Source of the DNA: an uncultured Verrucomicrobiae bacterium
GTDB taxonomy: Bacteria > Verrucomicrobiota > Verrucomicrobiia > Chthoniobacterales > JAFAMB01
Assembly (NCBI GenBank): GCA_963762565.1
Contig: CAVXLD010000001.1
Span: forward strand, 106,498 to 170,497
Direction: 5' to 3'
Length of the DNA stretch: 64,000 nt
Positions within the stretch are counted from its first letter, which is position 1; each line of letters opens with the position of its first letter. The position numbers and the translations under genes were made by a program. The notes under the pieces are model-generated. The model saw only the letters and a list, made by a program, of their open reading frames with translations. It was not told the origin of the DNA and ran no database searches. Below, piece by piece: positions 7,845 to 47,011 of this stretch.

Positions 7845-8155
7845 GTGATTCGTGATTCGTGATTAGTGATTAGTGATTGGTGATTGGTGGAGGCACTTGG
7901 TGGGGCGAGGCTCCCGAAAGAGTAAGAAGTTCTATCAGAGCTCCCGATGTTTCGCCGCTAAAGAGTTTGTTAGGCCTATTGACGCGCCGAGCCGGGGCCC
8001 AGCGATAGACCACGGCTCGGCGCCCTTAACGGCCTAGCATCGCGGGTCGGCGGGGTTAACCGCAAGGGCTTCGCTATCGCGATGGACCTTTCGGGAGCCT
8101 CGCCCCACCAATCACTTCTCACCAATCACCGATCACGTCTCGCCCTACCAATCAC
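7845..8155. repeat. Nested cassette: H' array / F1 element / H array
   Basis: gtgattcgtgattcgtgattagtgattagtgattggtgattggtgg (7845-7890) pairs with caccaatcacttctcaccaatcaccgatcac... (8107-8155), enclosing F1 copy 1. Confidence 0.85.
7899..8109. mobile_element. F1 palindromic element, copy 1 (MITE-like or structured RNA; 211 bp)
   Basis: Terminal inverted repeats ggtggggcgaggctcccgaaag / ctttcgggagcctcgccccacc. Conserved central hairpin gcgccgagccggggcccagcgatagaccacggctcggcgc (7984-8023). Confidence 0.75.
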
Positions 8156-9567
8156 AGCCCATATTGCTGCAACCGCCGGTAAAATGTGCTACGACTCAAA
8201 CCGAGAGCTTCCGCAGCGCGTCGAGCATTACCACCGTACCGATTAAGCGCTTTCTTGATTAACAACTTCTCGATGTCCTCCAAGGTCATTTCATCGAGGC
8301 GCGATGAATCAGACGGAGTTTGTCCTCCGATATCGGCCAAGCCGAGATCCGGAGGCCGGATCTGAGCACTGTCTGTCATCAGAACGGCGCGTTCTATGGT
8401 GTGATCGAGTTCCCGCACGTTCCCCGGCCACCGATGATAGGTGAGAGCCTTCTCGGCAGCAGGGTCAATCCCGGTAATCCGCTTAGCGTACCGGCTAGCA
8501 TGACGGTCCAAGAAGTGTTGGGCCAACGGAACGATGTCTTCCGGCCGGTCGCGCAAAGGCGGAATCTGAATCTCGACTGTTCGCAGTCGGAAATAGAGGT
8601 CTCGCCTGAACCGGCCCGATTCAACCTCAGCCGGTAAATCGGAATTCGTCGCCGACAAAAGCCTGACACTCGCGCGCCGAGTTTTGGAAGAACCGAGCCG
8701 CTCAAACTCGCCGGTCTCAACCGTGCGCAAAAGTTTGGCCTGTTGCGAGAGTGGAATATTCCCGATCTCATCCAGAAATAAGGTCCCTCCGTCGGCGATC
8801 TCGAAACGTCCGGCCCGCTCACTCTTGGCGTCCGTAAAGGCTCCTTTCATGTGGCCGAACAGTTCGCTTTCAAACAGGTTCTCGTTCAGGCCTCCCATGT
8901 TGACTGTCACAAAGGCCTTTTCAGCTCGCTGACTGGCGACATGAATCGCTCGCGCCACCACGCCCTTTCCCGTCCCGTTTTCGCCGGTGACCAAGACATT
9001 CGCATCAGAAGGCGCAATTCGTTGGATCGTCTCGACGACGGCGCGCATTCCCGATGATTGGGCGATTAGTCCAGTGGTCGCTAACGCCGTTTTCCGACTG
9101 GGCATCAGGCCGGCATCTCCGCGAAGGACCTGATTTTCCGACTCCAATCGCTCGCCGCGCAGCTCGGCAGCCGAAAAATCAAGCTGCGTGCGCACAATGG
9201 CCGAGACGCGCGAATTTTCCCAGGGCTTTTCAAAGAAGTCCCGAGCGCCGGTTCGCATGGCAGCAACCGCCAGATCGACCGTCGCCCACGCCGTCATGAC
9301 TACAATTGGTGGAGCGCCCTCGATTTTTTTGATCTGGGCGATAAGCTCGAGACCTTCCTGGCCGCCCGTCGTATCACGAGCGTAATTGAGGTCCAACAAT
9401 ATCAGCGAGACCTCGCTATTTTCGAGAGTCTCCATCACCTCTTTAGGAGAAGTCGCCAACGCAGTCTCGTACCCTTCCTTCGCGAGAAGTATTCGGAGCG
9501 CCTCCCGGACAGCGGCTTGGTCATCGGCGATCAGGATGCGGGGTTTTTTTGCGGGTTCTCGGTTCAC
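8152..9567 (-). CDS. Sigma-54-dependent response regulator (NtrC family enhancer-binding protein)
   Basis: REC domain (ILIADDQ...), AAA+ Walker A GENGTGKG, GAFTGA-type loop KGAFTDA, C-terminal Fis-type HTH LGLSRSTFYRRLQQYGL. The ORF is open to 9654, but residues 1-29 are repeat-encoded, so the GTG at 9567 (MNREPAKKPRILIADD) is the likelier start. Confidence 0.88.
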   Translation of the reverse strand: MNREPAKKPRILIADDQAAVREALRILLAKEGYETALATSPKEVMETLENSEVSLILLDLNYARDTTGGQEGLELIAQIKKIEGAPPIVVMTAWATVDLAVAAMRTGARDFFEKPWENSRVSAIVRTQLDFSAAELRGERLESENQVLRGDAGLMPSRKTALATTGLIAQSSGMRAVVETIQRIAPSDANVLVTGENGTGKGVVARAIHVASQRAEKAFVTVNMGGLNENLFESELFGHMKGAFTDAKSERAGRFEIADGGTLFLDEIGNIPLSQQAKLLRTVETGEFERLGSSKTRRASVRLLSATNSDLPAEVESGRFRRDLYFRLRTVEIQIPPLRDRPEDIVPLAQHFLDRHASRYAKRITGIDPAAEKALTYHRWPGNVRELDHTIERAVLMTDSAQIRPPDLGLADIGGQTPSDSSRLDEMTLEDIEKLLIKKALNRYGGNARRAAEALGLSRSTFYRRLQQYGL

Positions 9568-9860
9568 GGTTCGCAGTTCACGGTTGGCGGTTGCGGTTGG
9601 AGTTGTTCCTCGTCCTCGTTCACGTCGTCGTCCTCGTCCTCGAAAGGTTTGCACCGGGACCCAGCGGCAACATCCGCTCTATGTTGATACAGGAAATAAC
9701 AATCATCGAAAAAGCCTTACAAGATACGCGTGACCAGTAGAAAGGCCCATTCGCGAAGAATTAGCAACAACTTCTCATTGGTTGCGTGAGGATAACCGAG
9801 GGGACAACCGCAAACTGCAAGCCGCTAACCTTGACACCCTCGAGGACGAGGACGAGAACG
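9554..9860. repeat. Cassette with non-nested word order X'-Q-core-X-Q'
   Basis: X' at 9554-9600 (ggttcacggttcgcag...), Q at 9608-9642 (cctcgtcctcg...), X at 9805-9830 (caaccgcaaactgcaagccgctaacc), Q' at 9837-9860 (ccctcgaggacgaggacgagaacg). Confidence 0.8.
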
Positions 9861-9933
9861 ATTATCAGCCAGCAGCCGTGCCCCGCACTGTGTGCATTGA
9901 CGACGCTGAGGGTGTTAGTAGACTCCGCAACCA

Positions 9934-10296
9934 ATGGAAGTGATTAATCGTAACGAGGTCGCGGCATTCGTCGGACCGGATGGCGGCATTATCCGGGAGC
10001 TTGCTGCTAGCCGGAATTCATCGGCCCGAAAACAGAGTTTGGCCGAGGCTACGATTCCGGTCGGAGGAACGGTTACCGAACATTTTCACAAAACCACAGA
10101 AGAGTTTTACTACATCCTCAGCGGAACCGGCCTGATGAAGATCGAGGACGAACTGAGAGAAGTGGGTCCGGGAGACACGGTTATTATCATTCCCGGTAAA
10201 CGCCACAAGATCACAAACAACGGCCAAGTTCCGTTAGTTCTGCTGGCGTGCTGTTCACCTGAATGGACTGCAGAAGATCAGGTGCTGGTGGACTGA
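9934..10296 (+). CDS. Cupin domain protein
   Basis: 120 aa with the two cupin motifs GGTVTEHFHKTTEEFYYILSG and GDTVIIIPGKRHKITNNG. Confidence 0.75.
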   Translation: MEVINRNEVAAFVGPDGGIIRELAASRNSSARKQSLAEATIPVGGTVTEHFHKTTEEFYYILSGTGLMKIEDELREVGPGDTVIIIPGKRHKITNNGQVPLVLLACCSPEWTAEDQVLVD

Positions 10297-10304
10297 TTAA
10301 AACC

Positions 10305-10809
10305 AAATTTCACCACAGAGACACAGAGGACACGGAGAACTGATCACAGACTAATTATAACACTTTACATTTATGGTGTGTATGCGATGATCGGAATATG
10401 GAAGGGTTTAGAAATGACCTAACGCATGCCGCAATCGGCATGGCCATCGAAGTACACCGGGAGCTCGGCCCCGGGCTCCTCGAATCGGCTTACGAAGAAT
10501 GCCTCGCCTACGAGTTGCACCAATCCTCCTTGAGATTTGTTCGACAAAATCCCTTGCCTATCAAATACAAAGGCTTGGAGCTAGAATGCGGCTACCGGGT
10601 AGACCTCCTCATTGAAGATGAGCTAGTTATCGAGTTAAAGAGCGTCGAAGAGCTGCTCCCGATCTTCGATGCCCAAGTCTTAACCTACATGAAGTTGGCC
10701 GACAAGCATTTAGGGCTGTTGATCAATTTTAACGTGCCAATGCTGAAAACGGGAATCAAAAGATTTGTCCGTTGAGCTCCGTGTCCTCTGTGTCTCTGTG
10801 GTGAAATTT
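10305..10809. mobile_element. ORF-bearing cassette with perfect 33-bp terminal inverted repeats (U word CACAGAG-type)
   Basis: aaatttcaccacagagacacagaggacacggag (10305-10337) is the exact reverse complement of 10777-10809. It encloses only the GxxExxY gene. Confidence 0.85.
10398..10775 (+). CDS. GxxExxY family protein (PD-(D/E)XK-like)
   Basis: 125 aa. Motif GLLESAYEECLAYEL matches GxxExxY, followed by YRVDLLIEDELVIELKS, which is typical of the family. Confidence 0.85.
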   Translation: MEGFRNDLTHAAIGMAIEVHRELGPGLLESAYEECLAYELHQSSLRFVRQNPLPIKYKGLELECGYRVDLLIEDELVIELKSVEELLPIFDAQVLTYMKLADKHLGLLINFNVPMLKTGIKRFVR

Positions 10810-10813
10810 TGTT

Positions 10814-12175
<1,362 letters not shown>

Positions 12176-12375
12176 GAGAAACGGGGAGCAGATTTTATCC
12201 CAAACTGTTTAAGCAATCGGTGAGTTATTAGAAAAGGATAAAAAAGAACGAACGCAGCAAATGATGGGCAACTGTGCATTATTCTAAGCGAGGCGCTCCG
12301 GAAACTGGGTAACAAAGCCGCCTAGAAACGGTCTGGCTTAAGCAGAAAGCGATTTTCCCCTCGTCGTGCGCGCAC

Positions 12376-13070
12376 CCCGGTTTTTACCCCAAAGGGGTAA
12401 TAGGACTCAGCCTGGGGTTTTAACCCCAGGAATGCGCCAAAAAAAAGACCCCCGCCCTGAAAGGGCGGCAGATTTTTGGAATGACAAATACATCAATATA
12501 TTATGTAATAGATACAATGTCTTAATCACTGGCACGCATCTTGATTCACCTTGTCTTTTCGACCAAGAACCGGGTCGCGTTCTTGCAATCTCAACAGCTC
12601 CGATCTGAAGTTCACGCGTATCTTACTGCGACTTTACGCGCCCTGGATTGCGAACCCGTTCAGGTCGGCGGAGTCAGCGATCACGTACATCTACTCTTTG
12701 GTCTTTCCCGAACCGTCTCGCTGGTAGATGTAGTTAAACAGCTTAAAACCAGCTCCACGAAGACGATTCGAGAGAAAGGTCATCACGCTTTCAGTTGGCA
12801 AACCGGCTACGGCGCCTTCTCAGTCAGCGAATCGAATAAAAGCGCAGTCATCGACTACATCATCAATCAAGAAATCCACCATCGTAAGATGACATTCCAA
12901 GAAGAAATCAGGGTGCTTCTAACCAAGCACAGTATGCGTTTCGATGAGCGATACGTCTGGGATTGAGACACTCTCAATCTGCCGCCCTTTCAGGGCGGGG
13001 CATTTTTGGGGCGCATTCCTGGGGTTAAAACCCCAGGCTGAGTCCTATTACCCCTTCGGGGTACAACCCC
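12376..13070 (+). mobile_element. Y1 (HUH) transposase element flanked by about 95-bp inverted REP-like repeats (RAYT-like unit)
   Basis: Left 12376-12471 and right 12979-13070 are near-identical reverse complements. Each contains the hairpins ggggttttaacccc and cccgccctgaaagggcgg. Confidence 0.8.
12517..12966 (+). pseudogene. IS200-like / REP-associated tyrosine transposase homologue with an in-frame TAA at codon 3
   Basis: Reads ATG TCT TAA then SLARILIHLVFSTKNR. HUH motif at HVHLL and catalytic-Tyr region WQTGYGAFSV. The longest intact ORF restarts at TTG 12541. Confidence 0.7.
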
Positions 13071-13135
13071 AACGTCCGAAAGATCGGCGCTTCGTTAGAA
13101 CCTGACGTTCTTTCGGGAGGCGCACCCTAGCAACG

Positions 13136-14233
13136 TCACAAATTCCCTCGTTTTGCCTGCTCGCGTTCTAACGCTTCAAACAACGCTTTGAAATTACCTG
13201 CTCCGAAACCCTGACTGCCATGACGGCGGATAACTTCATAAAACACTGTTGGCCGATCCTCAACGGGTTGGCTGAAAATCTGAAGCAGGTAACCTTCTTC
13301 ATCTCGGTCGACAAGAATGCCCCGACGCCCTAATTCGCGATAGTCTTCTTCAATCTCGCCGATCCGTGACGGTAGTTCTTCGTAGTAGGTCTCCGGCACC
13401 CGCAGAAAGTCGACTCCTGCCGCGCGTAAAGCATCAACCGTGGCAATGATATCTTTCGTCGCTAGAGCGATATGTTGCACCCCGGGCCCGCCGTAGTGAA
13501 TCAGGTATTCCTCGATCTGGCTGCGCCTTTTTCCTTCCGCTGGTTCATTAATCGGAAACTTGATGCGTCCGGAACCGTTTTGCATGACTTTGCTCATCAG
13601 GGCCGAATAGTCAGTACTGATGTCTTTATCGCTGAAGTGGGTTAGCTGGCTAAACCCAAGGACTTCACGATAGAAATCAACCCAATGATTCATCTGCCCT
13701 AATTCGACGTTCCCAACGATGTGGTCGATGGCCGCGATCCCGGTCTCTGGCGCCGGAGGCTGATTGGCGATTTCTTTAAAGCCTGGAAAGATCCCGCGAT
13801 AGTTTCGGCGCTCAATGAAACTGTGTACCGTGTCTCCATAGGTAGCGATCGAGGCTCGCACGAAGCGTCCGCTGCCGTCCTCAAATTCTTGTGGTTCTTG
13901 AACACCTTTGGCGCCTCGGCGCAAAGCCTCTTGATAAGCAGCTCGAGCATCACTAACTCTCAATGCGATATCGCGAACGCCATCGCCATGACGCGCAATG
14001 TGTCGTGATACGTCTGGCGCAGAATCCGGAGCAAGTGGTGAAGTTAAGAGAAAATGAACCTGGCCTTTTTTTAGCAACCAGGAGGCGCGATCTCGCACTC
14101 CGGTTTCCAGACCTGAGTAGGCAATTGGAACCAAGCCGAGGGCCGTGCGGTAGTAATGAGCGGCTTGCCGAGCATTTGATACGTAGAACTCGACGTAATC
14201 AATTCCGTGAAAATCGAAAGGATCTGAACTCAT
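13136..14233 (-). CDS. hppD: 4-hydroxyphenylpyruvate dioxygenase
   Basis: 365 aa. Two VOC-fold halves, the C-terminal GFGAGNFKALFEALEREQ motif, and PINEPAEGKRRSQIEEYL. Confidence 0.92.
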   Translation of the reverse strand: MSSDPFDFHGIDYVEFYVSNARQAAHYYRTALGLVPIAYSGLETGVRDRASWLLKKGQVHFLLTSPLAPDSAPDVSRHIARHGDGVRDIALRVSDARAAYQEALRRGAKGVQEPQEFEDGSGRFVRASIATYGDTVHSFIERRNYRGIFPGFKEIANQPPAPETGIAAIDHIVGNVELGQMNHWVDFYREVLGFSQLTHFSDKDISTDYSALMSKVMQNGSGRIKFPINEPAEGKRRSQIEEYLIHYGGPGVQHIALATKDIIATVDALRAAGVDFLRVPETYYEELPSRIGEIEEDYRELGRRGILVDRDEEGYLLQIFSQPVEDRPTVFYEVIRRHGSQGFGAGNFKALFEALEREQAKRGNL

Positions 14234-14339
14234 ATGGGCTTCTTCGGTTTTGAGTGACGCGTACTCCCAGACGCATCATTGGAGGTGATATTCAGGCTAT
14301 CATTAAGTAGAGAATGAAACAACGGAAAGGACGACCTTT

Positions 14340-14361
14340 GGTGGGGCGAGCCTCCGGAAAG
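14340..14361. repeat. Solo F1-type terminal repeat (left-end half site)
   Basis: ggtggggcgagcctccggaaag directly abuts F2 copy a. No matching right end is nearby. Confidence 0.6.
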
Positions 14362-14364
14362 ACC

Positions 14365-14583
14365 GGTAGGGCGAAAATCTCGGCGCGCCCAACGGAAACC
14401 ATTTTTTTTGTGACTCAATCGCGCCGGATTTGAGCCATGCGTGGGCCCTGCATCGTCCGGGACGCAATCGTTCTGTGGCGTGTCGAACCGTCGGAAGTTG
14501 CGGCTCCACGGAGCGGCTCAAATCCGGCGCGGTTAGACGTTTTAAAAAACGCATCCTGGGCGCGCCGAGATTTTCGCCCTACC
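14365..14583. mobile_element. F2 palindromic element, copy a (219 bp)
   Basis: TIRs ggtagggcgaaaatctcggcgcg / cgcgccgagattttcgccctacc, plus an inner inverted repeat cgcgccggatttgagcc...ggctcaaatccggcgcg. A second copy is at 32815-33032. Confidence 0.8.
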
Positions 14584-15187
14584 GGTCCTGGGTCGGCAAA
14601 GCGTGGGTACCCAAGATTCCGCGATCCGGAATACCATACGCCGTGCGCGACTCTGCAATGATACCAAGAGTATCTTTCGACTCGGGGACGAGACGATAAA
14701 TACGCCCTTTGGGGATAATCACATAATCACCGGGACGATAAGGCAGGATGCCGAACTCGGTCTCGAAGACACCAACCCCACGATGGAAGAAATAGAGTTC
14801 GTCGCCATCGACCGTTCGATAGAGGAACGGCATTGCCTCACGCCTCCGAGTTAAATAGAGCGAGAACGAACGCCGGGCACATGCCGCCATGGATTGCATC
14901 AACAAGGCCGGCGTTCCTTTCGGGTCCGCTAAATCCAGCGTCTCGATCGTCCGGCAATCCATAGCGATCGGCTTTAGAGAACCTTCAATCCGCTTCCAGG
15001 CCGAGGGCATCTCTTTAGCGTAAAGATGGGTGGCTTCACCAAAAAAGCCTTCGCGGCCATACTCCATTTCATAGGTCCCTTCCGGGACACCAACGTGCGC
15101 CTGATTCGGATAAACGCCGTTTTTAAGGGGGAAGCGCTGCATGCTGGCAATGTATTCCGGGGGCCGGGGAGCACAAGAGCGTGGCAC
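14579..15187 (-). pseudogene. hmgA: Homogentisate 1,2-dioxygenase, N-terminal about half only (truncated at the F2 element)
   Basis: 202 aa. NQAHVGVPEGTYEMEYGREGFFGEATHLYAKEMPSAW and the cupin segment DGDELYFFHRGVGVFETEFGILPYRPGDYVIIPKG resemble the short bacterial HGD family. It lies upstream of hppD. The ORF ends on a TAG inside the F2 terminal repeat, and no C-terminal half follows. Confidence 0.6.
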
Positions 15188-15206
15188 GCGGTAAGGGGTG
15201 GCAGCA

Positions 15207-19785: not shown

Positions 19786-20054
19786 GGTAGGGCGAGGCTC
19801 CCGAACACCAAGGGGTTTTCGCGGAGCTGGGATCGGACCAGACACCCATTATCGTTGCGACGCCTTAAATCCCGCCGAGCCGTGGTCCCAGCGCTCGCCA
19901 AACCGATGGGATCAGCTTCATTTTTCGGCCGTGCGCGGGGGGTGGCACGTTGAATATCCGCGGCTCGGCATTTCTAGCGGCCTTTGATCACGACGGGCAG
20001 CACACGTCGTGGTCCTTGGAAAAAGGTTTGGAAATGCGGGAGCCTCGCCCTACC
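19786..20054. mobile_element. F1 palindromic element, copy 2 (269 bp, enlarged centre)
   Basis: TIRs ggtagggcgaggctcccgaa / cgggagcctcgccctacc. The central ccgccgagccgtgg...ccgcggctcgg stem is retained around a roughly 58-bp larger interior. Confidence 0.7.
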
Positions 20055-27226: not shown

Positions 27227-27316
27227 CCATGAAATGGTTGCAGAGCGCTCGGAAACTGACGACAACCGGCCCCGGTTTGAAAAGTGGGCGACCTCTCGGT
27301 GAGCGGTCTGCAAATC

Positions 27317-27440
27317 GGGGAGGGCGCGCGTCCCCGCGCGCCGCGAGGACGTGGCACAACCTAAAGGTGTATGTTGGCCCCCGATTACAACACATGCTCG
27401 GCTTCGGCGACAACGGATCGCGGGGACGCGATCCCTCCCG
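27317..27440. repeat. W-type cassette: GGGGAGGG + GC tetraloop hairpin ... hairpin + CCCTCCC
   Basis: ggggagggcgcgcgtccccgcgcgcc (27317-27342) and ggatcgcggggacgcgatccctccc (27416-27440). The same design recurs at 49063-49180. Confidence 0.7.
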
Positions 27441-27455
27441 GTCGCTCGGTTTCGC

Positions 27456-29360
27456 ATGCAAAGTGATAAACTAGCGTTTGACCGCAGTTATCCGCCGATC
27501 GAACGGGCGTTCGCTGGGTTCGATCCGGCAGATCTACAAGCCTATCTCGACGGAGAGTTCGTGGAGACACGAAACTTCGTGAAGAGCATCATTACCCGGC
27601 CAGAGTTTCGTTATTTCGAGGGCACTGATCTGCATGCCTATAGAAAACAGGTGCTCGACTGGTTGCGCGCGATTTCAGATGCCGGCCTGGGGCGCTTGTT
27701 TTTGCCTCCGGAGCTCGGCGGCGAGGCCAACTTAAGGAAATTGATAGCGGTCGTGGAGACCCTCAGTTTCCATGATGGGAGCCTCCTGATCAAACTCGGT
27801 GTGCAATTCGGGCTCTTCGGAGGGAGCATTCACCAGCTGGGGACGGAATATCATCATCGGGCATATTTGCCTAAAGCAGCCGCCTGCGAGTTATTCGGAG
27901 GCTTTGCCATGACCGAGATCGGTCATGGCTCAAACGTCCAAGCTTTGGAGACAACCGCTCTGTATGATGCTGAACACCGGGAATTCATCATCAACAGTCC
28001 ATCGTACAGTTCGGGGAAGACTTTTATCGGCAATGCTGCTGTCGACGGACGGTTCATGGTTGTGTTCGCGCAGTTGCATATTGGAGCCACAATCCATGGG
28101 GTCCACGCCTTCGTAGTTCCAATCCGGGATGCAAGCGGCCAGGCTCTTCCCGGGATTGCGATCGAAGACAACGGGCTCAAGCTCGGTCTTAACGGGGTAG
28201 ATAACGGTCGCATCTGGTTTCAGAACGTGCGGGTGCCTAAGACAGAACTATTGAATCGGTTTGCAGAGGTAACCGACGACGGCCAATACCGGAGCCAGAT
28301 CAAGAGCAATAATCGCCGTTTCTTCACGATGATCGGCACGTTAGTGAACGGTCGCATCACCATGGCTTTAGCCGCGAACAGTATGGCGAAATCAGCGCTT
28401 ACTATCGCGATCCGTTACGCAGCGCGTCGACGGCAATTTGGAGAAGCCGTCCAGGAAACGCTGGTGCTGGATTACCCGGCAACCCAACGGAGGCTCATGC
28501 CCTTGCTGGCCAATGTTTACGCCTTTGACTTTGCGGTGAAACGCCTTGCTCAGGTCCGCGAAACCTCGCCATCGACCAGTGCACGCCCAATCGAAACTTT
28601 AGCCGCTGGCATCAAGGCTTTCTCTACGTGGAACGCAATCCGCACTATCCAGATCTGCCGGGAAAGCTGCGGCGGCGAAGGTTATCTGTTTGTGAACCGG
28701 TTCGCGGCCCTGAAAGCTGATGCCGATATTTTCACCACCTTCGAGGGCGACAACACTGTCCTGATGCAGCTAGTCGCCAAGAACCTCCTTGGGGAGCTAC
28801 AGGACCAGCTTAAAGAGATGAAGCCTGGCCGGATTGCCCGTTTTTTTCTGGATCAGCGATTAAGAGTGCTAAAAGGGAAATTTGCCAGCCTGGCGACCGA
28901 CAGCGCCTCCGAGCTGACTCCCGAGCACCAGCTAAGTCACTTCCGGTTTCGCGAATCAACCCTGCTGCTCCGGTGCGGCGAAGCGTTTCGGCGGTTGGTT
29001 CGCCATAAGGCGATAGATGCATACTCCGCTTTTAGTCAGCTACAGCCGGAATTACTGGAGCTAGCAGAGGCTTACGCCGAACGCCAGGTGCTGGAAAGCT
29101 TTCTTCAAGGCATCACGGACATATCCAACCAAACGTTACAGCGGCCATTGCGCAAGCTGGCTGACCTTTTCGCTCTTTACCATCTGGAGAAACACAAAGG
29201 TTGGTTCTTGGAGAACGGTTTCATGTCGGCAAAAAAATCGAAGGCGATCACAAAACAGATCACTGGTTTGTGCGCCCAGGTTCGGCTTGATGCGGTCGGA
29301 CTAGTAGATGCCTTCGGTATCCCCGACCAGTGCCTCAGCGCCCCGATTGCGTTGGGGTAG
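27456..29360 (+). CDS. Acyl-CoA oxidase / ACOX-type acyl-CoA dehydrogenase
   Basis: FAMTEIGHGSNVQALETTA and NGLKLGLNGVDNGRIWFQNVRVP, about 630 aa, typical of ACOX. The ATG at 27456 avoids a repeat-encoded N-terminal extension. Confidence 0.85.
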   Translation: MQSDKLAFDRSYPPIERAFAGFDPADLQAYLDGEFVETRNFVKSIITRPEFRYFEGTDLHAYRKQVLDWLRAISDAGLGRLFLPPELGGEANLRKLIAVVETLSFHDGSLLIKLGVQFGLFGGSIHQLGTEYHHRAYLPKAAACELFGGFAMTEIGHGSNVQALETTALYDAEHREFIINSPSYSSGKTFIGNAAVDGRFMVVFAQLHIGATIHGVHAFVVPIRDASGQALPGIAIEDNGLKLGLNGVDNGRIWFQNVRVPKTELLNRFAEVTDDGQYRSQIKSNNRRFFTMIGTLVNGRITMALAANSMAKSALTIAIRYAARRRQFGEAVQETLVLDYPATQRRLMPLLANVYAFDFAVKRLAQVRETSPSTSARPIETLAAGIKAFSTWNAIRTIQICRESCGGEGYLFVNRFAALKADADIFTTFEGDNTVLMQLVAKNLLGELQDQLKEMKPGRIARFFLDQRLRVLKGKFASLATDSASELTPEHQLSHFRFRESTLLLRCGEAFRRLVRHKAIDAYSAFSQLQPELLELAEAYAERQVLESFLQGITDISNQTLQRPLRKLADLFALYHLEKHKGWFLENGFMSAKKSKAITKQITGLCAQVRLDAVGLVDAFGIPDQCLSAPIALG

Positions 29361-32814: not shown

Positions 32815-33032
32815 GGTAGGGCGAAAATCTCGGCGCGGCCTACGGGAACCACCTTCCTGGCTGAACCGCGCCGGATTTGAGCCATGCGTGCGCGGTGTAT
32901 TGCCCACGACGTTATTGCTCACCGTCGGATCGAAGCCAGCGAGGTGGTCCATCCACGGCGCGGCTCAAATCCGGCGCGCACGGTCCCAGCGCAGGTGGCC
33001 CATCCTCAACGCGCCGAGATTTTCGCCCTACC
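32815..33032. mobile_element. F2 palindromic element, copy b (218 bp)
   Basis: It has the same 23-bp TIRs and inner cgcgccggatttgagcc / ggctcaaatccggcgcg repeat as copy a. Lies between ribBA and ribH. Confidence 0.8.
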
Positions 33033-33046
33033 GGAGTCTCGGCCAT

Positions 33047-33066
33047 TTCGGGAGCCTCGCCCTACC
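33047..33066. repeat. Solo F1-type terminal repeat (right-end half site)
   Basis: ttcgggagcctcgccctacc lies 14 bp after F2 copy b. This mirrors the F1 left half next to F2 copy a. Confidence 0.6.
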
Positions 33067-33114
33067 ATCCTGGCCCTTGCGGGCAATCTTGGCCGGAGTA
33101 TCGTCCCAAGCTCA

Positions 33115-33591
33115 ATGTCGAATCAGTTTCCAATTCGTCCCGATACGCAGACTGAGACGTGGCGGTTCGGAATCGTGGCCAGCGAATACAACCGCGAATA
33201 TGTGGACGGGCTAGTTGGATTTGCCAAGGACGAGCTTCTAGCGATCGCCCCCAAGAGCGAGGCGACGGTTGTTCGGGTGCCCGGCTCTTTCGAAATCCCG
33301 ATCGGGGTGCAGGCGGTCATCGAGCATCAGCCTATCAATGCAGTTCTCGCCTTTGGCGTTATCTTCGATGGCGAGACCATGCACGCAGAGCTGATTGCTG
33401 GCGCAGTGACTACTGCGCTAATGAATCTGAGTCTGCAGCATAAGATCCCGATTTTACACGAAGTACTTGTTGTTAAAACGGATGAACAGGCCAAGGAACG
33501 ATGTTTATTACCCAAGATAAACCGGGGTATAGAAGCCGCCCGCGCTGCGATCCGGATCTTAAGTACCCTGAGCAACCTGGCAAAGGAGTAG
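33115..33591 (+). CDS. ribH: 6,7-dimethyl-8-ribityllumazine synthase
   Basis: WRFGIVASEYNREYVDGL and VVRVPGSFEIP. The ATG at 33115 is used because the ORF extension to 32884 is encoded by the F2 element. Confidence 0.92.
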   Translation: MSNQFPIRPDTQTETWRFGIVASEYNREYVDGLVGFAKDELLAIAPKSEATVVRVPGSFEIPIGVQAVIEHQPINAVLAFGVIFDGETMHAELIAGAVTTALMNLSLQHKIPILHEVLVVKTDEQAKERCLLPKINRGIEAARAAIRILSTLSNLAKE

Positions 33592-39634: not shown

Positions 39635-39648
39635 CCCGCGGCTGCGGG
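39635..39648 (-). terminator. Possible intrinsic terminator after rpsN
   Basis: cccgc-ggct-gcggg hairpin directly after the stop codon, followed on the minus strand by AUCUUCACUCUU. The stem is short. Confidence 0.35.
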
Positions 39649-39649
39649 A

Positions 39650-39919: not shown

Positions 39920-39973
39920 AGAGGAGTGACGACCATACAGGGAAGCGCCCTCTTTTCAACGGAAAAATTAAGG

Positions 39974-40394: not shown

Positions 40395-40639
40395 GGACCG
40401 AGGCTAACGCCGGTCCGTGTTTCTATTAAATCGATAGATTATCTATGATTATCGTTTGTATCGATGTACCGCCTTGGGACGGATCCTTGCCGGCACTGAC
40501 GACGGTTCAACCGAAAGTGGACCTAGTGGACTGAGTGGACGTAGTTGCGAATGCCTTTGCTTGATAGACGCCCCTAAGGCAGCAGAAATACTGCGGAGTA
40601 GCCGGAGTGTTTCTGCCGTAGCCTGCTTCGGCGAGCAGC

Positions 40640-43054
40640 TTAATGATTCCAGAACTGGCGGAAAGCGTTGGACCAATTGCGGTCCTGGACCCGTTGGCGG
40701 GCGTGATCGCCCATCTGGCGGCGGAGTTCCGGGTCAGCTGCCAAGCGTCGGATCGCCTCAGTAAAGTCCTCTACATCCAGCGATCGCGTGATGAACCCGT
40801 CTACCCCATCGGTGACAAGCTCAGCCGGACCGCCTTGATCGGAAACAACACAGGGTAAACCGGCAGCCTGAGCTTCCAGGACGACATTACCAAAGGTGTC
40901 GGTAGTACTCGGAAAAATGAAAACATCGCTCGAAGCGTAGGCAGCACCGAGCTCCTTTCCTTTCAAATAACCCGTATAGCAGGCTTCGGGTGCAATGTGC
41001 CGTAATTCTTTAAGGTAGGGGCCGTCACCAACAATCAATAGACGAACCGGGAGCTTCTCTTGTCGTAGTCGGTTCACGGCCTTTGCGGCGATATCGAGGT
41101 TTTTCTCCTTTGAAATTCGTCCCACATAAAGAAGTCCGATCTCTTCCGGAGCTTTGCCGAAATGGCTCCAAAACTTCGGATCACGGAGTCCCGGATTGAA
41201 AAGCCGGGTATCGATTCCTCGAGGAAAAATCTTCAGCCGCTCAGGAGCGATCCCGCGCCCAATCCATCGTTGCCGGTAGTACTCAGAGTTGACGTAGACC
41301 AAATCAAGCTGGGAGTAGAACCACTGCATGAAATTCCAGGCCAATGTTTCCATATAGTTGTCCTGGGTGAGAATCCGGACGTACTGGGGAAAGTCCGTGT
41401 GATAGATGCCCACGGCGCGTATATCGAGAATTTTGGCTGCAACCAATGCGGTTAAACCGACTGGCCCCGGCGTACTGATAATCAACTCGGTGAATCGCTC
41501 ACTCTGGACGTAGTCGATCATATGCAACACCGGCGGGAAGCTCAGCTTTTGCAACTCGTATTCTGGCAACTCGAACTCGCCAATCGGAACAAAGTTCTTG
41601 ATTGGGATATCAGCAATTCCGATCTGCTGACGCGAAGTGACGACAATGAGATCGGCTCCACTTTCCAGGCCGGCCGCCGTCATTTTTCGGATCGTAGTGG
41701 TGACGCCGTTTACGTCTTCCAAGGTGTCGGTAAACCAAGCCCGTTTCGTGTTTTGCAGAACGTCCGGGACGAAATTTACGGTACCTAAACAAATGTCGGT
41801 CAATCGGCTCCGGGACGGCGCCTGGCTATGGTAGCCGTAGAAATAGGGGCCCAGCAGTAAAGCGAGCGGCGTCAAAGCACTGAGCGTTTGCACAGCGTCC
41901 ATCACGTTGCCGGCAGAGATTTGCTGGACAAAACGATCAAAGAACCGAAACCCGAGCTGGTTAAAGACGGTAGCAACGAGCAAGAATGCTCGTCGTTCGG
42001 GTTCCTGAACTCCCTGGGTCTCCTTCGCAAGTTGAGCTTGGACGTCCTGATTCCCGAAATAATTAGCGAGCTCAGGCCAGAGGGACAGGTTCACCGGCTT
42101 GGCTAACTCGAAGATCTTGCCGGAGACGATTCCGTTAAAGATGAGACCGATCTTCTCGCCAATACTGAAATGGGTGGGGTTTTTGCCTTCTAAAAACCGC
42201 GAGATAACGACCTCCAAGAAACCCAGATTCGGGCTAACTGCAGCTGAGAACTTGTCCTTGGCGAATTGGTACGCGGTATTGTAGAGGCCGTGAGCAATCA
42301 CCAACGGGGTACCGCCGAACCCGCGAGTGACGCAATCACCATGCTCCAAGTAGTGCAGAAAATCGCGGATAGATTCTGCATCCGCTGTTTCTGTGTAGGC
42401 GGAACCGGGAAAGATTCCGGCATGATCATCGGAGCCAGCCACCAGCACCTTACGCCACGGTTCTGGATGAGTTGGCGCAAGTTTTTGGCGCTCGGCAAAT
42501 TCATCGATCCTTTCCGGCGTCAGCGAACGAAAAACGAAGCGGGCAACCTCGCTCAACAAGCTGTCTCGCAGACCGTTGACCCCTTCGAAATGCTTGAACA
42601 GCAGGATCAGCTTTTGGACGTGATCGGCAGTCAGACGACGGTCTTTGTCGTAGAAAGGATGGGCCACAGCATGGCAGATCCCATTGCGACTTAGATACTC
42701 TCGTACCTCGAAAATATTCCGGCGTAGTTCCTGGATCTCGGAATGCTGCGTTTCGGAGATATTCCAAACGAGCAGATGCACTGACACACGGTCGTCGGGG
42801 AACTCAGCTCCGACTTCGACACTGACGAAGCTGCCGGGTAAGCTGGCGATTTCCAGACAACCGTCGATGCGATTGTGGTCAGTGAAAGTCACAAAAGTCA
42901 TCCCCTTCTCTTTGAGCCGATGATAAAGGGCGCGCGGAGCAGAATAACTATCGGGAAAATCGAATCGACGAAAGAGCCACTCAGCGGATCGGTCGCTAAA
43001 CCGGGAGTGGAGATGGAGATCGACTTTAGCTGCCATCCTAGTTTCTGCGGACAT
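40640..43054 (-). CDS. PHP-domain phosphoesterase fused to a GT4 (group 1) glycosyltransferase
   Basis: N-terminus VDLHLHSRFSDRS...VTFTDHN (PHP metal site). C-terminus EKNLD...LLIVGDGPY...FIFPSTTDTFGNVVLEAQAAGLPCVVSDQGGPAELV (GT4, diacylglycerol-glycosyltransferase-like subgroup). 804 aa. Confidence 0.85.
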   Translation of the reverse strand: MSAETRMAAKVDLHLHSRFSDRSAEWLFRRFDFPDSYSAPRALYHRLKEKGMTFVTFTDHNRIDGCLEIASLPGSFVSVEVGAEFPDDRVSVHLLVWNISETQHSEIQELRRNIFEVREYLSRNGICHAVAHPFYDKDRRLTADHVQKLILLFKHFEGVNGLRDSLLSEVARFVFRSLTPERIDEFAERQKLAPTHPEPWRKVLVAGSDDHAGIFPGSAYTETADAESIRDFLHYLEHGDCVTRGFGGTPLVIAHGLYNTAYQFAKDKFSAAVSPNLGFLEVVISRFLEGKNPTHFSIGEKIGLIFNGIVSGKIFELAKPVNLSLWPELANYFGNQDVQAQLAKETQGVQEPERRAFLLVATVFNQLGFRFFDRFVQQISAGNVMDAVQTLSALTPLALLLGPYFYGYHSQAPSRSRLTDICLGTVNFVPDVLQNTKRAWFTDTLEDVNGVTTTIRKMTAAGLESGADLIVVTSRQQIGIADIPIKNFVPIGEFELPEYELQKLSFPPVLHMIDYVQSERFTELIISTPGPVGLTALVAAKILDIRAVGIYHTDFPQYVRILTQDNYMETLAWNFMQWFYSQLDLVYVNSEYYRQRWIGRGIAPERLKIFPRGIDTRLFNPGLRDPKFWSHFGKAPEEIGLLYVGRISKEKNLDIAAKAVNRLRQEKLPVRLLIVGDGPYLKELRHIAPEACYTGYLKGKELGAAYASSDVFIFPSTTDTFGNVVLEAQAAGLPCVVSDQGGPAELVTDGVDGFITRSLDVEDFTEAIRRLAADPELRRQMGDHARQRVQDRNWSNAFRQFWNH

Positions 43055-43096
43055 GACACTAGCTCACGCTGTAGCGCTGGCAAATAATTAGATCGA

Positions 43097-43227
43097 AGCG
43101 CCCCGTGGAGCGTGCCTCGCTTGCGAGTCCGACGAACCACCCATTGCGTATTTCCTCTTTCCGCGGGCTGTCAGGCGAAAATATCTCAGAGTCGGCCTTG
43201 CAAGCGAGGCACGCTCCACGGGGCGCT
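43097..43227. repeat. F3 cassette with perfect 28-bp inverted repeat
   Basis: agcgccccgtggagcgtgcctcgcttgc (43097-43124) is the exact reverse complement of 43200-43227. 75-nt core. Lies between DUF2334 and PHP-GT4, and the right arm contains the DUF2334 stop codon. Confidence 0.9.
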
Positions 43228-43990
43228 ACTTCCCCACCTCAACGCTCGCCGCCTTGAGATGATTGGCGATAAACTTTTCGTACGATAACGGTTGCCGGTC
43301 CTGAAGAGCAGCGGTGACCAAGCTCTTAACATGGGACCAAACTGCGGGAATCTCGCAATCTGCGGGGTGAATCCCGATCCGCAGCAACGGTTTATCTCGT
43401 AACCGAGAAAGCAGACCTTGGTTCCAAGCCAGGCTCACCATCCGCCTCCAAGGGGCTCGAGTGCTCCACACCAACGATCGTGAGTAATAATTGTGAACCC
43501 CGTCAAAAACTTTAACGGAGCCCACATTGGTAATGTAAGAAAACCCCACCTTGCGGACAGCGGCTTCCGCTTCGTAGCCCAAAAGCCAAGCCGGTGCTAC
43601 GAACCCGTTCAGCTTTCGGTCCAGGAATGCCAAGTCCTCAATACCCATTTGGAGGCGGGAAATCGCTTCATCCCTGGCGAGATCGAAAAATTCTCCTTCA
43701 CCGGCCGTGTACACTTGAGTCGTGAATTTGGTAATACCGGCATCCGTTGGTTTGGGATTGCGAGCGTGATAATAGCCGTGCAGCACGGGTTCGTAACCTT
43801 GTCGTACTCGATCTGATACCCACTCTTTGAATGCAACGTTATCCCGGACCGGCGCGTTGTGGTGATGGTTTGGGATGACCAGTAACGAGCCCTCGGAGAC
43901 ACCCAGGCTGCGAAGGGCCTCTATAATTTTGTCACAGCTCGCCTGAGTCAAAGGCGATACATCATGAACGGAAACGACGAGAGCTCTCAT
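43226..43990 (-). CDS. DUF2334-family protein (polysaccharide-deacetylase-like fold)
   Basis: MRALVVSVHDVSPLTQASCDKIIEALRSLGV...LVIPNHHH...VLHGYYH is typical of DUF2334. The ATG at 43990 overlaps the upstream gene by 29 nt. Confidence 0.7.
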   Translation of the reverse strand: MRALVVSVHDVSPLTQASCDKIIEALRSLGVSEGSLLVIPNHHHNAPVRDNVAFKEWVSDRVRQGYEPVLHGYYHARNPKPTDAGITKFTTQVYTAGEGEFFDLARDEAISRLQMGIEDLAFLDRKLNGFVAPAWLLGYEAEAAVRKVGFSYITNVGSVKVFDGVHNYYSRSLVWSTRAPWRRMVSLAWNQGLLSRLRDKPLLRIGIHPADCEIPAVWSHVKSLVTAALQDRQPLSYEKFIANHLKAASVEVGK

Positions 43991-45464
43991 AAAAGTCAGA
44001 CAAACGCTGGCGAAGCCCGAAAACGAGACAGAGTGCACCGCTCACAATCGGAAGCCAATCTCCAAAAGAACCGTAGGGCGTCATATCATTCGCCACCGGA
44101 AAGTCGAGGCTATATGTGGACAATAGACGTGTCCTCGGCGGCGCCTCCTTTACCACTCTGCCGCTAGCGGTCTGCATAAAGGCTCCGGCTCGATCGGACT
44201 CAAAGATGATAGGCCTTCCGAGGGAGACGCCCCAGCAACGAAGGTTCTCGCTAAATTGTTCCTCACCAATCGCTGTCCCTTTCGGAGTATCAACCAAGAC
44301 AACAAATCCTTGAGCCGGGACCTTGAGCCCGGCTTTGAGCGCCTTTAACGACATGCCTTCCTGGTTAATGAATGGAAGTAGCGCAACACCTTTGACGGAA
44401 AAGCTCTGAAGATTCTTGGGAACCTGATCTGCTAAGATTTGAAAACCGGGATTCTTTTGAAACGAGAGCACACTTTTGACTGTGGTCGGAAGATAGGCGG
44501 AATAACCAGAGATGGGTGCATTACTAGCGGCGGCTACCCCTGTGATTACGCCGACATCGGGCGCCGCTGACTTCCGATCGAAGCTCTTAGATTCTATCCC
44601 CCCTTCAGTGATTCGCCGCCAAACCAGCAAATCCGATTTCAAAGCCGCTACTCCAGGAAGCAAACTGTTGAGCTCGCTCGCGCTGGATCCGGGCGATGCC
44701 GTGATGCTAATCCTGAGCTGGAGAGGTTGCGGTCGAGGCTGAGCAAATTGGAAACCGGCGGCGGCAATGACGAAGAGCATCGCCAAAGTAAAAACGATGT
44801 CGAAACGGGCCGCCCAGTTCATCCTCCCCGGCTGCAATGCGAGCCGCCGAATCGCCAGAAAAATGATCGCATTGGCAAATACCGCGATGAAACTCAAACC
44901 GAACGGACCCGTGACTCTAACAATTTGGAGGAGCGGAAGATTTGCGGCGATCGGCAAGCCGACTGGATTCCAAGCGGTCAAGATCATTCCGCGACACCAT
45001 TCTAGGAACGTCCATGAACTTGCGATCAGAACCGCCTGACGGAGATGCGCGGTGGAAACACGCCACGCCTCGGCATTACCGGGCGCCCCCATAAAAATCG
45101 GCTGAAGCCCTTTTTTGCGCTTCTTTTCATCGGGTTTAGCCAGCTCCGGGAGCTTACAGAATCGCCAGACGAACCAACTCCAAACGATACCTAGAAGGCC
45201 AAGCACACCCAGAATCGTTCCGAGCTCTTGATACCGATGTTCTTTCCACAGCCAGTGAAACGTGATGAGAGCAAAGCTCGTGGAAAACAGGGCGCCCTGA
45301 ACGATCACCATTCCCGCTCTTCCTCTTAGGGAAAGCAAAGAGAATAGGATCGGAACAAAAGCAACCCAAATAAGCCAAGACAAGTTCCAGGGAGGCAGAC
45401 CTAGGGCAAGCAAAGCGCCCGCAAGAAGACTCAATAGGAGCTGCCACAACCAAGCCAATCTCAT
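43962..45464 (-). CDS. Apolipoprotein N-acyltransferase (Lnt)-like membrane protein with divergent CN-hydrolase domain
   Basis: N-terminus MRLAWLWQLLLSLLAGALLALGLPPWNLSWLIWVAFVPIL and C-terminus TPYGSFGDWLPIVSGALCLVFGLRQR are collinear with Lnt. The ATG at 45464 overlaps the upstream stop (ATGA). Confidence 0.7.
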   Translation of the reverse strand: MRLAWLWQLLLSLLAGALLALGLPPWNLSWLIWVAFVPILFSLLSLRGRAGMVIVQGALFSTSFALITFHWLWKEHRYQELGTILGVLGLLGIVWSWFVWRFCKLPELAKPDEKKRKKGLQPIFMGAPGNAEAWRVSTAHLRQAVLIASSWTFLEWCRGMILTAWNPVGLPIAANLPLLQIVRVTGPFGLSFIAVFANAIIFLAIRRLALQPGRMNWAARFDIVFTLAMLFVIAAAGFQFAQPRPQPLQLRISITASPGSSASELNSLLPGVAALKSDLLVWRRITEGGIESKSFDRKSAAPDVGVITGVAAASNAPISGYSAYLPTTVKSVLSFQKNPGFQILADQVPKNLQSFSVKGVALLPFINQEGMSLKALKAGLKVPAQGFVVLVDTPKGTAIGEEQFSENLRCWGVSLGRPIIFESDRAGAFMQTASGRVVKEAPPRTRLLSTYSLDFPVANDMTPYGSFGDWLPIVSGALCLVFGLRQRLSDFYESSRRFRS

Positions 45465-46660
45465 GACGCCCCCTTTCGGCGGAGCTCGATAAAGGTTCGC
45501 CAAATTAATAGAACGATGAGCGGATAAATCGCCGGGTGAAATCGTTGAGGAAGCCAAGGCGACGAAAACATAAAAAGGAGCCCTTCAAGCATGGCCAGGA
45601 ACAAATAAAGCCGGGGCATGAATACCTTATTGGCCGAAAAAAAAAGCAATCCGAGGCCTGCAACTAAATGGGTGGGTACAAGCCAAGCCACGTTCCAATT
45701 CTGATATGCCTCCCAGTGCAAGGTGTTCGCCGCCAGCACAACTAAGAACAGTCCGGTAAAACCGAACACCATATAAATGACCGCTGAAATCAATCGAGAC
45801 GCCTTGCGTCCGCGCAACGCCCATAGTCCGATCCAGGCGATAAGCACGGCAGAAAATACAATCTCCGGATCGAATGCTCGAGGTATTCTTGGCAGAGGAC
45901 GAGCTGGAAACAGCCGAACCGGCGCCTGGCCAAAAGCATCATCATTAATTTTAGTCTGGCATACCGCGGACTCGAGGTTTGCCGGCAGAAAACAGGCTTC
46001 CCGAGGCTGAACCAATCGATCAACCCCAGCCCCCAGCAATAAATAAATGCCAAAGCGAATCCAGGGAATCCGATCCAGGTAAGGATCCAACATTTGGCGA
46101 AAGGTTACTCCGGCGACAGTCTTGTCTGCCACAGGCGTTCCGATGATTTTCTCAAAAGCGTCTCGCACTCGGGTTGAGCAGTTATCAAGGAGAAAATCGT
46201 ATCGATAGTAGCGATTCTCTGGGGCGAGATTCGTCTCCAGCGCCTCGAACAAGCTCTGTTTTTGTTCAGGGGTTAGATTTAGTTGGGCTTCAGTTACGCC
46301 TTGACCCAGAGCACCATGCTCCTCGATGTCCGCGGCTCCTTGATCCACCGAAAGCTGGTAAAGAAGGTCGCCTCGCGCAAATCGGAGGTAGAAATTGCCC
46401 ACACTCATGTCAAACGTCCCAAAGTTGTAGAGCCGATCAAATCCAAGTTCTGGATCCAGTATCCGGATCGCGCTGTGTCCGAAAGCTGTATACAGCTCAT
46501 CACCAGGTGAACAGGTCACCAGAGAAATCTTGGTGGCAGGGCTGAGCGCAGGAAGTCCGCCCGGTTGGTTCTCTTCGGCAGCGCGAGCACTCCAACTGAG
46601 CAGGATTAAGGTGGCAAACAGGCCGCAAAAAATACATTTCCAGTCGGTAAACGCCCTCAT
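45461..46660 (-). CDS. DUF4105 (Lnb-like) periplasmic domain protein with C-terminal multi-TM domain
   Basis: Signal peptide MRAFTDWKCIFCGLFATLILLSWSARA, then SLVTCSPGDELYTAFGHSAIRILDPELGFDRLYNFGTFD, characteristic of DUF4105. The ORF extension to 46840 is encoded by the F1 element. Confidence 0.7.
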   Translation of the reverse strand: MRAFTDWKCIFCGLFATLILLSWSARAAEENQPGGLPALSPATKISLVTCSPGDELYTAFGHSAIRILDPELGFDRLYNFGTFDMSVGNFYLRFARGDLLYQLSVDQGAADIEEHGALGQGVTEAQLNLTPEQKQSLFEALETNLAPENRYYRYDFLLDNCSTRVRDAFEKIIGTPVADKTVAGVTFRQMLDPYLDRIPWIRFGIYLLLGAGVDRLVQPREACFLPANLESAVCQTKINDDAFGQAPVRLFPARPLPRIPRAFDPEIVFSAVLIAWIGLWALRGRKASRLISAVIYMVFGFTGLFLVVLAANTLHWEAYQNWNVAWLVPTHLVAGLGLLFFSANKVFMPRLYLFLAMLEGLLFMFSSPWLPQRFHPAIYPLIVLLIWRTFIELRRKGAS

Positions 46661-46800
46661 TGGCGGACTCTGCGATATTTCAACGAGCATCCGTACGCCG
46701 GTTCTTGCGGCAAGGACCAAGACTCTGGCACGAGAAAATCTTCCGTCCAGTACTTTGGTAGGGGGGAACGCCGGGAACGAGCTAGAACGCCGGGAACGCT

Positions 46801-47011
46801 GGTAGGGCGAGGCTCCCGAACCTACACAAAGGGTTAGCAAAGGCTAAACTCCGAGGCGAATCGCTGATACGCTGTACCGACAAACGCGCCGAGCCGTGGC
46901 CCAGCGATAGATCACGGCTCGGCGCGCTTCATGGCCTATGAACACCGTTCGCCAGGTGACGTACATGGCCCTTCGCGATAGCGATGGATTCTTCGGGAGC
47001 CTCGCCCCACC
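46801..47011. mobile_element. F1 palindromic element, copy 3 (211 bp)
   Basis: TIRs ggtagggcgaggctcccgaa / ttcgggagcctcgccccacc. The central hairpin at 46886-46925 is 37/40 identical to copy 1, and the length is the same as copy 1. Confidence 0.8.

Follow-up and report, generated by a model that had tools for sequence, protein, structure and literature searches.

The 64,000-nucleotide (nt) window analysed here, a stretch of contig CAVXLD010000001.1 of an uncultured bacterium of the Chthoniobacterales, carries three copies of an intergenic palindromic repeat, which we call F1, at positions 7899..8109, 19786..20054 and 46801..47011 (copies 1, 2 and 3). F1 behaves as mobile or recombinogenic DNA, because at orthologous sites of related genomes it is present, absent or replaced, and because, within a species, bodies are swapped between heads that remain fixed. 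The interpretation that we favour, with about even confidence, is that F1 belongs, together with the families F2 and F3, to a clade-specific superfamily of dyad-symmetric, non-coding intergenic repeats resembling REPINs and miniature inverted-repeat transposable elements (MITEs); the superfamily would be old and slowly turning over, its members being exchanged or converted via their shared heads. The Chthoniobacterales ('Udaeobacter'-type group) are among the most abundant soil bacteria; they are almost uncultured, and little is known of their genome dynamics. Sequences from other genomes are designated below by L numbers.

Results

Body exchange and turnover at orthologous sites

The three families have a head of 10–13 nt in common, GGTRGGGCGA(GGC), whose 10-nt form matches the window 16 times where 0.4 matches are expected. 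A precise exchange of bodies between such heads is seen at the site of the F3 element (52097..52317; 221 nt, no strand), in which the heads GGTGGGGCGAGGC / GCCTCGCCCTACC enclose two inverted REP-like hairpins (GCCTCGC-AA-GCGAGGC). In strain L124, which has ~96–98% nucleotide identity to the window, the flanks of this site (T8CG...CGA8) and its 13-nt heads, GGTAGGGCGAGGC / GCCTCGCCCCACC, are identical to those of the window, and a normal 209-nt F1 body lies between the heads where the window has the F3 body. The REP-like hairpin itself (CCACGGCCTCGCAAGCGAGGCRCGCTCCA) is also found as single copies at 43193-43221 and 49267-49295, besides the inverted pair at 52113-52157 and 52259-52303 that forms the F3 body.

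F2, which competes with F1 for the same intergenic sites, is a family of ~218-236 nt whose first ten bases, GGTAGGGCGA, are those of F1; these are followed by AAAWCTCGGCGCG, and the inner palindrome is CGCGCCGGATTTGAGCC. Two F2 elements, both without strand, lie in the window at 14365..14583 (219 nt; head GGTAGGGCGA, then AAATCTCGGCGCG, with the same inner palindrome) and 32815..33032 (218 nt), and further ones at L073 6001-6234, L088 5334-5561, L077 3362-3593 and L042 1290-1525. In both window elements one junction falls exactly at the head position and an F1 remnant stands on the other side: the first is directly adjoined by a 25-nt F1 left terminus (14340..14364, + strand) and the second by the last 34 nt of an F1 right end (33033..33066, − strand). 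An earlier note on this DNA had listed solo F1 termini at 14340, 33047 and 52096/52301; the first two are these true end fragments, whereas the last pair are the two heads of F3. The reciprocal arrangement occurs in L016. At one orthologous intergenic region F1 is present in one metagenome-assembled genome (MAG) and F2 in another; at a different one, in L061, inverted 7-mer arrays take the place of the F1 body within intact F1 termini.

The occupants of the PGM-Lnb intergenic region (PGM, phosphoglucomutase) are similarly varied. Among relatives with 87-93% PGM protein identity the region holds F1, an F2-like element, a gene-less doublet of Acido-Lenti-1 terminal inverted repeats (TIRs), or none of these; the F1 copies found there have unrelated linkers and belong to three lineages, one of them with a triplicated left half. 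At 70-79% PGM identity the region measures only ~30 nt. In L118 (4473-4966), the F1 left half-unit and part of the centre are tandemly triplicated and followed by one right half.

Over distances slightly larger than those between sister strains, F1 sites are very dynamic. For copies 1 and 2, each of the four sister-strain contigs spanning the respective site retains the copy; apart from varying numbers of 7-mers, the only changes are scattered substitutions and one clustered patch. Copy 3 is 93% identical in strain L124.

Around the first F2 element, the segment 14365-15299 is missing in strain L089; a homogentisate dioxygenase gene fragment (HgmA_N only) lies beside F2 at 14579-15187. Inverted 7-nt arrays (GTGATTN, CACCAAT, CGCCAAA, CTAGCTC and others) surround intergenic modules, and their copy number varies by strain. 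In the window they were found at 7843-7889/8105-8144, 4464-4545, 6343-6409 vs 50220-50306, 50-87/184-250 and 15216-15253/15399-15442.

Anatomy and census of F1

F1 loci were collected with an exact 20-mer scan of one genome per species, which yielded at least 88 loci and gives an incomplete account of copy numbers and host range. Nearly all of the matches listed come from five soil Verrucomicrobiota/Chthoniobacterales MAGs, which do not include the window genome. Pairing of the termini at the loci listed, to which the family counts below refer, gave 73 elements, and a profile hidden Markov model (HMM) of the half-unit gave 72 paired elements. For the alignment, the 211-nt class was split at its centre and the left halves were aligned with the reverse-complemented right halves. 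The result is one clean alignment of ~105 columns, that is, an F1 element consists of two inverted half-units of ~105 nt each.

The outer box of the half-unit comprises 20 nt, namely the head GGTRGGGCGA followed by GGCTCCCGAA, and is nearly invariant; in 72 copies the 20-nt termini are perfect or near perfect inverted repeats, and the entire 105-nt halves are inverted homologues. The inner box is CGCGCCGAGCCGTGG, and the inner 14 nt, GCGCCGAGCCGTGG, are nearly invariant too. Semi-conserved positions in between read AAAGGCC, GCGRAG and TAGGCC/TACGCC. Identity between the linkers of different copies averages 0.42, with few pairs above 0.7, which bears out the earlier description of F1 as not recently amplified. 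The claim that the linkers are largely unrelated did not hold, since all half-units fit the one profile with its semi-conserved positions, and the cttcgc...gatgga box described there is real but restricted to a subfamily.

The lengths of the 72 copies are multimodal: 38 measure 207-214 nt, one 218, twelve 233-249, nineteen 268-293 and two 334-348. Whatever the class, neither half is shortened, and the additional DNA (~40, 80 or 150 nt) lies at or beside the centre. Some of these central inserts are another small palindromic element with ends CTTGTCCGACGTAG. This element, bounded by CTTGTCCGACGTAG...CTACGTCGGACAAG, is found repeatedly within the F1 central stem between GCCGA and GCC (L057 6850-7020, L040 4050-4130, L010 5610-5690, L019 850-1000, L081 7190-7270, L059 4700-4790 and L034 3600-3780). 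A sigma-54 promoter was considered for the central inserts and rejected, given that the recurrent TGGCACG motif comes without the −12 TTGC element. Coding DNA was likewise rejected for F1, whose lengths differ by 1-3 nt and whose conservation has no 3-nt period.

The three window copies, none with an assigned strand, conform to this anatomy, and their positions and lengths (211, 269 and 211 nt) agree with the earlier note. Copy 1 has termini at 7899-7918 and 8090-8109 and central stem arms at 7984-7997 and 8010-8023; it is situated between genes for a histidine kinase and a sigma-54 response regulator, 42 nt past the stop codon of the latter. Copy 2, between convergent genes for an ABC permease and a FadL-like protein, has full half-units at 19786-19888 and 19957-20054; where the loop would usually be, it has a central segment of 68 nt. 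Copy 3 is situated 23 nt past the stop codon of a phosphoglucomutase gene. The 20-mer terminus GGTRGGGCGAGGCTCCCGAA has eight matches in the window at ≤3 mismatches, against 0.02 expected, confirming the termini that had been reported along with the shared central hairpin. The likeness of that hairpin in copies 1 and 3 was also confirmed, a recount giving 38/40 identical positions instead of 37/40, and the extra DNA of copy 2, noted earlier as 58 bp, is located in the loop of the central hairpin. On either side of the centre, terminus and central stem are 67-70 nt apart in 3/3 copies. The half-unit HMM detects exactly six halves and three fragments in the window; a degenerate F1-end-like fragment lies at 13085..13119 (− strand), where it adjoins a Y1-transposase element.

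MAGs L017, L039, L042, L054 and L069, titled Alphaproteobacteria, Acidobacteriota, Actinomycetota or Bryobacterales, carry F1, with F1 end fragments only in L039. Their GC content of 54-56% equals that of the Verrucomicrobiota loci, and so these taxon labels are doubtful and may be wrong. A host range of F1 beyond the Verrucomicrobiota was accordingly dropped, the remaining matches in Halobiforma, Gaiellaceae and Chloroflexota being lone 20-mers. Neither the terminus sequence nor repeats of Udaeobacter turned up in a search of the literature.

Evolution in place

Evolutionary rates of boxes and linkers were compared in four orthologous pairs only. Pooled over these copies, identity is 92% in the boxes (249/272) against 80% in the remaining sequence (454/569); the odds ratio is 2.7 (Fisher p=1e-5). 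The identity of the linkers is near that of fourfold-degenerate sites taken from the genes neighbouring each copy: 0.78 vs 0.63 for L006/L043, 0.85 vs 0.86 for L035/L055, 0.63 vs 0.54 for L056/L073, and 0.93 vs 0.92-0.98 for copy 3 of the window and its counterpart in L124. Evolution of the linkers is therefore neutral or under weak constraint, and that of the boxes is ~2.5 times slower. The constraint on termini and central hairpin that had been proposed from the three window copies is thereby seen in place, and the proposed conservation of length is reflected in the strong mode at 207-214 nt. The conservation of the boxes is compatible with any of three causes: purifying selection exerted by a host function, selection on the elements to be copied, and concerted evolution by conversion from identical boxes, of which there are many at other sites.

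Similar pairs are few within a genome. The closest paralogues are physical neighbours (identity 0.88 in L076 and 0.80 in L033), and in its right half the F1 copy at the thyA site of L124 is ~80-85% identical to copy 3, 5 kb away. This likeness between neighbours points to local duplication or conversion.

Target sites, flanks and partner enzyme

No direct repeat of ≥2 nt, and hence no target-site duplication, was found at any of 63 copies. Instead, the flanks extend the palindrome, with T(T)(T) before the element and (A)(A)A after it, and 30-nt flanks fold with their own partner at −21.8 kcal/mol vs −14.3 with a foreign one (p=3e-7). F1 therefore tends to lie at the dyad centre of a larger, copy-specific palindrome. 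Around copy 1, the left arm of this outer palindrome is an array of 7-nt repeats, (GTGATTN)n, at 7843..7889 (+ strand), and the right arm a CACCAAT-like array at 8105..8144 (+ strand); an extra solo head follows at 8140-8149.

Nor was an enzyme for F1 found. At the loci listed, no transposase lies within disrupted or solo copies or between paired copies; the genes flanked by two F1 copies encode a glycosidase, an epimerase, a beta-lactamase-fold protein and shikimate dehydrogenase. No autonomous element with F1 ends is present in the 64-kb window or in ~0.9 Mb of loci, and the viral contig and plasmid collections hold no F1 match. The earlier note had named target-site duplications and an autonomous partner as marks of a simple MITE; the absence of both from the material searched speaks against a classical MITE. 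The covariation that the note also asked for is almost wholly lacking, as described below.

The window does encode an IS200-like Y1 transposase (open reading frame (ORF) 12541-12966, + strand), in an element at 12379-13069. Its ends are 73-nt inverted repeats (12379-12451 and 12997-13069) made up of three small hairpins, and the right end contains the only Rfam match of the window, Acido-Lenti-1, at 13018-13063. Ends of the same type, 94 nt long, delimit a homologue in L008, and a doublet of such ends without a gene is found in L115; sister strain L089 is without the Y1 element and has an F2-like element at that site. The Acido-Lenti-1 'RNA motif' may thus be the terminal repeat of a Y1-transposase element. 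The Y1_Tnp genes of the window, of L008 and of 22/22 metagenome loci carry Acido-Lenti-1-type ends and never F1 heads; other RAYT families were not surveyed. The Y1 transposase of the window was rejected as partner of F1 because the ends differ, and the REP/RAYT link that the GT[AG]G head and the published GTAG repeats and 'TIRtrons' suggest is one of resemblance only.

Genomic position

All of the 72 F1 copies listed are intergenic. With gene calls from a crude longest-ORF heuristic, 15 copies lie between convergent, 30 between tandem and 7 between divergent genes, the last arrangement being depleted (7/52, binomial p=0.03), and the nearest gene 3' end is a median 39 nt away. Gene calls run into the elements: ORF 32884-33591 starts inside F2, and the longest ORFs of thyA and folE2 overlap F3.

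Tests of a folded RNA

The earlier note read F1 as a product of selection on structure, possibly an RNA. The window copies indeed fold well above shuffled sequence (z −5.3 to −7.3), but a strong fold is expected of any palindrome and alone is no sign of RNA. Pairing was examined with the half-unit profile HMM and direct pair counting. In a 37-sequence alignment, 90.8% of positions in the terminal and central helices are paired, vs 90.1% after partner shuffling, so that the pairing of the stems reflects their invariant sequence. True covariation is seen nowhere but at the R/Y position 4 and at the first position of the linker. Across the dyad, the linkers pair at 57.9% vs 54.7% when shuffled, and the identity of the two arms is 0.39 within an element vs 0.365 with a foreign arm, which is no gain; near-perfect palindromes are limited to few copies, e.g. 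L082. What is preserved in the stems is thus sequence, and selection on structure was not found.

Other expectations for a structured RNA fared no better. The half-unit has no consensus fold on either strand (alifold ~0 kcal/mol). Where the upstream gene indicates the sense strand, the stems contain 46 G-U vs 38 A-C transition mismatches, without an RNA-type asymmetry. A search of Rfam over the whole window gave no F1 match at the gathering threshold, and for copy 1, up to E = 10, only chance miRNA matches at E>5. The signature of an intrinsic terminator is absent, as the T-run precedes and the A-run follows the hairpin on both strands; at least six T in 8 nt within 70 nt downstream occur in only 7-25% of copies, with no T-run enrichment. 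A role of F1 as terminator loop, which fits the single case of L056/L073, was rejected since T-runs are not generally associated. Without covariation, consensus fold, G-U bias, Rfam match or T-run, the structured-RNA reading of F1 is not supported.

Discussion

If F1 belongs to a superfamily of repeats that are exchanged via their heads, the process by which the elements are copied or exchanged would use the conserved boxes for recognition or pairing. Such a process might consist of a trans-acting recombinase or transposase that leaves no duplication, or of head-anchored template switching or gene conversion at hairpins. Concerted evolution, together with intragenomic selection for being copied, would then keep the boxes intact, and the ~23-bp terminal stem, expected to form upon transcription in 3' untranslated regions and operons, would be a consequence of the palindrome and not a selected function.

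Several points weigh against this interpretation. No enzyme was identified, with no transposase in or beside any copy at the loci listed; the sole HUH Y1 family seen has different ends in 22/22 metagenome loci, L008 and the window; and an empty head-to-head docking site is missing from 937 kb of sequence. The slower evolution of the boxes in place is equally expected from a host-level function. Copies 1 and 2 are fixed in all five strains, meaning that mobility is slow. The copy census and host range, moreover, are incomplete, and the gene calls are crude.

Of the functions that the host might select, we consider a cis-acting RNA unlikely. Here, once transcribed within 3' untranslated or intercistronic regions, the perfect ~23-bp terminal stem and the 14-bp central stem would form a hairpin that is protective or is cut by RNase III and so determines the 3' ends or the stability of the mRNA, a role that has been proposed for REP, ERIC and BIME. 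The location of the sites just past stop codons, their rarity between divergent genes and the strong predicted folds (z −5 to −7) are in accord with this, as are the near-identical boxes on both strands, which would suit either orientation, the preservation of boxes in place in orthologues, and the occurrence of different families at the same site as if interchangeable. However, it is sequence rather than pairing that is conserved, with almost no covariation; G-U is not in excess over A-C on the sense strand; the linkers have no consensus fold; the T before and A after the element are the reverse of an intrinsic terminator; and an Rfam match is absent. In addition, close relatives lack the element at the same site, and one copy, that of the L124 swap site, lies between divergent genes. 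A DNA scaffold, which we hold to be quite unlikely, would account for the conservation of the boxes as sequence: the heads, ~170 bp apart, and the central 14+14-bp palindrome would bind a host protein (nucleoid-organising, gyrase/IHF-like as at BIMEs, or a regulator) that needs fixed spacing. The modal length of 207-214 nt, the 67-70-nt spacing maintained despite linker drift, and the short vocabulary reused in F1 and F2 (GGTRGGGCGA, CGCGCCGAG and GAGCC) fit such a scaffold. Central inserts of 40-150 nt, carried by a third of the copies, on the other hand, alter the spacing, solo halves persist, turnover among close relatives is high, and the flanking genes examined offered no candidate protein or linked gene. 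Both the RNA and the scaffold would also explain box conservation in place and the position after stop codons; the absence of covariation and strand bias, the inserts that change the spacing and the local dispensability of the element count against them.

Among the explanations by DNA mobility, a dedicated site-specific exchange system is, in our estimate, rather improbable. In this proposal the shared heads would be the sites at which palindromic bodies are swapped at fixed intergenic docking positions, integron-like, and the terminal and central boxes would bind the enzyme of the system, or else a host protein that uses the modules as intergenic insulators. Less probable still is a classical MITE, i.e. 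a deletion derivative of an insertion sequence with ~105-bp terminal inverted repeats, mobilised by a DDE transposase encoded elsewhere. The long inverted ends do abut at the centre, where variable remnants or inserts are found, and the family is multi-copy with subfamilies; yet none of 63 copies has a target-site duplication, the window and ~0.9 Mb of loci yielded no autonomous copy, the plasmid and viral collections contain no match, and replacement of a body between heads is no outcome of cut-and-paste. It is barely credible that F1 is an inverton in which the 20-bp inverted repeats are invertase sites flipping the 170-bp interior. The perfect 20-bp repeats around an intergenic segment of ~170 bp and a small palindrome described earlier as flipped between copies would suit an inverton. 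In the assemblies, however, the orientation of the interior is constant over five strains for copies 1 and 2 and over three orthologous species pairs, and inversion of a quasi-symmetric interior would change little.

Comparison with known systems places F1 as a new palindromic repeat that belongs to neither the MITEs nor the REPINs. It has no target-site duplication and no partner in the sequence searched, as a MITE would; nor does it have the short hairpin of REPs or, among the Y1 genes seen, a flanking RAYT. Like REPINs and REP doublets, F1 is extragenic, forms an inverted doublet that makes one long hairpin, and is without target-site duplication; it has a GT[AG]G motif at its outer end, its conserved recognition parts flank variable spacers, and many diverged copies persist, in part vertically. 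Unlike them, it has units of ~105 nt, where REP units have 20-40 nt; the 20-mer terminus does not form a stem-loop by itself, and its GTRG is base-paired with the CYAC of the far end, whereas the GT[AG]G of REPs is unpaired. Furthermore, no Y1 gene was found flanked by F1 ends, as would be the case in a REPIN-RAYT system; the Y1 genes seen carry the Acido-Lenti-1-type ends. The TIR repeats of 'TIRtrons' (Di Nocera et al. 2013, PMC3733652) belong in the same comparison, and REP families with GTAG or GTGG heads have been reported in another verrucomicrobium, Opitutus terrae.

With MITEs such as the Correia elements F1 shares the short, non-coding, multi-copy form, the terminal inverted repeats and the subfamilies, but its copies are very highly diverged, its inverted repeat takes in the entire half-element, and neither a target-site duplication nor an autonomous partner was found. 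The enterobacterial ERIC/IRU and similar sequences are imperfect palindromes of 100-200 bp in transcribed intergenic regions, conserved across species, with size classes that arise from insertions at fixed internal sites; they have been described as MITE-like with a TA duplication. F1 is likewise an intergenic palindrome, highly conserved across species, with size classes from insertions at a fixed internal site. It differs from ERIC/IRU in that it has no sequence relation to them and lacks a duplication, and in that its heads recur in other families and its bodies are exchanged. The attC sites of integrons, at which cassettes are exchanged by recombination, resemble F1 in that they are imperfect palindromes whose outer and inner boxes are conserved and whose middle varies. 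In contrast to attC, no integrase or cassette array lies by F1, whose copies are 12-27 kb apart among housekeeping genes; its boxes are unrelated to the R/L boxes, and its arms are not kept complementary.

The density of about one copy per 20 kb in the window would bring the superfamily to hundreds of copies per genome. Repeats of this kind will break short-read assemblies and produce spurious ORF calls and overextended gene starts, and they are a natural marker of strain-level variation. Head-anchored replacement of bodies could open the way to a new recombination activity, or provide an example of bacterial gene conversion templated by hairpins. F1 is, on the present evidence, no new RNA class.

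Other observations in the window

Two further features of the window were noted. Inverted repeats of 42 nt with 95% complementarity, at 10296-10337 and 10777-10818, surround an ORF of 125 aa (10398-10775; PDDEXK_3 in the gene table of L089), and the unit 10296-10818 may be another small mobile unit. At 27309-27453, ~140 nt at the start of ORF 27351-29360 are 84-85% identical to two places on CAWBNT010000001 (L042 and L069) and 76% identical to L046; this stretch may represent a conserved N-terminal or leader region of a paralogous family.

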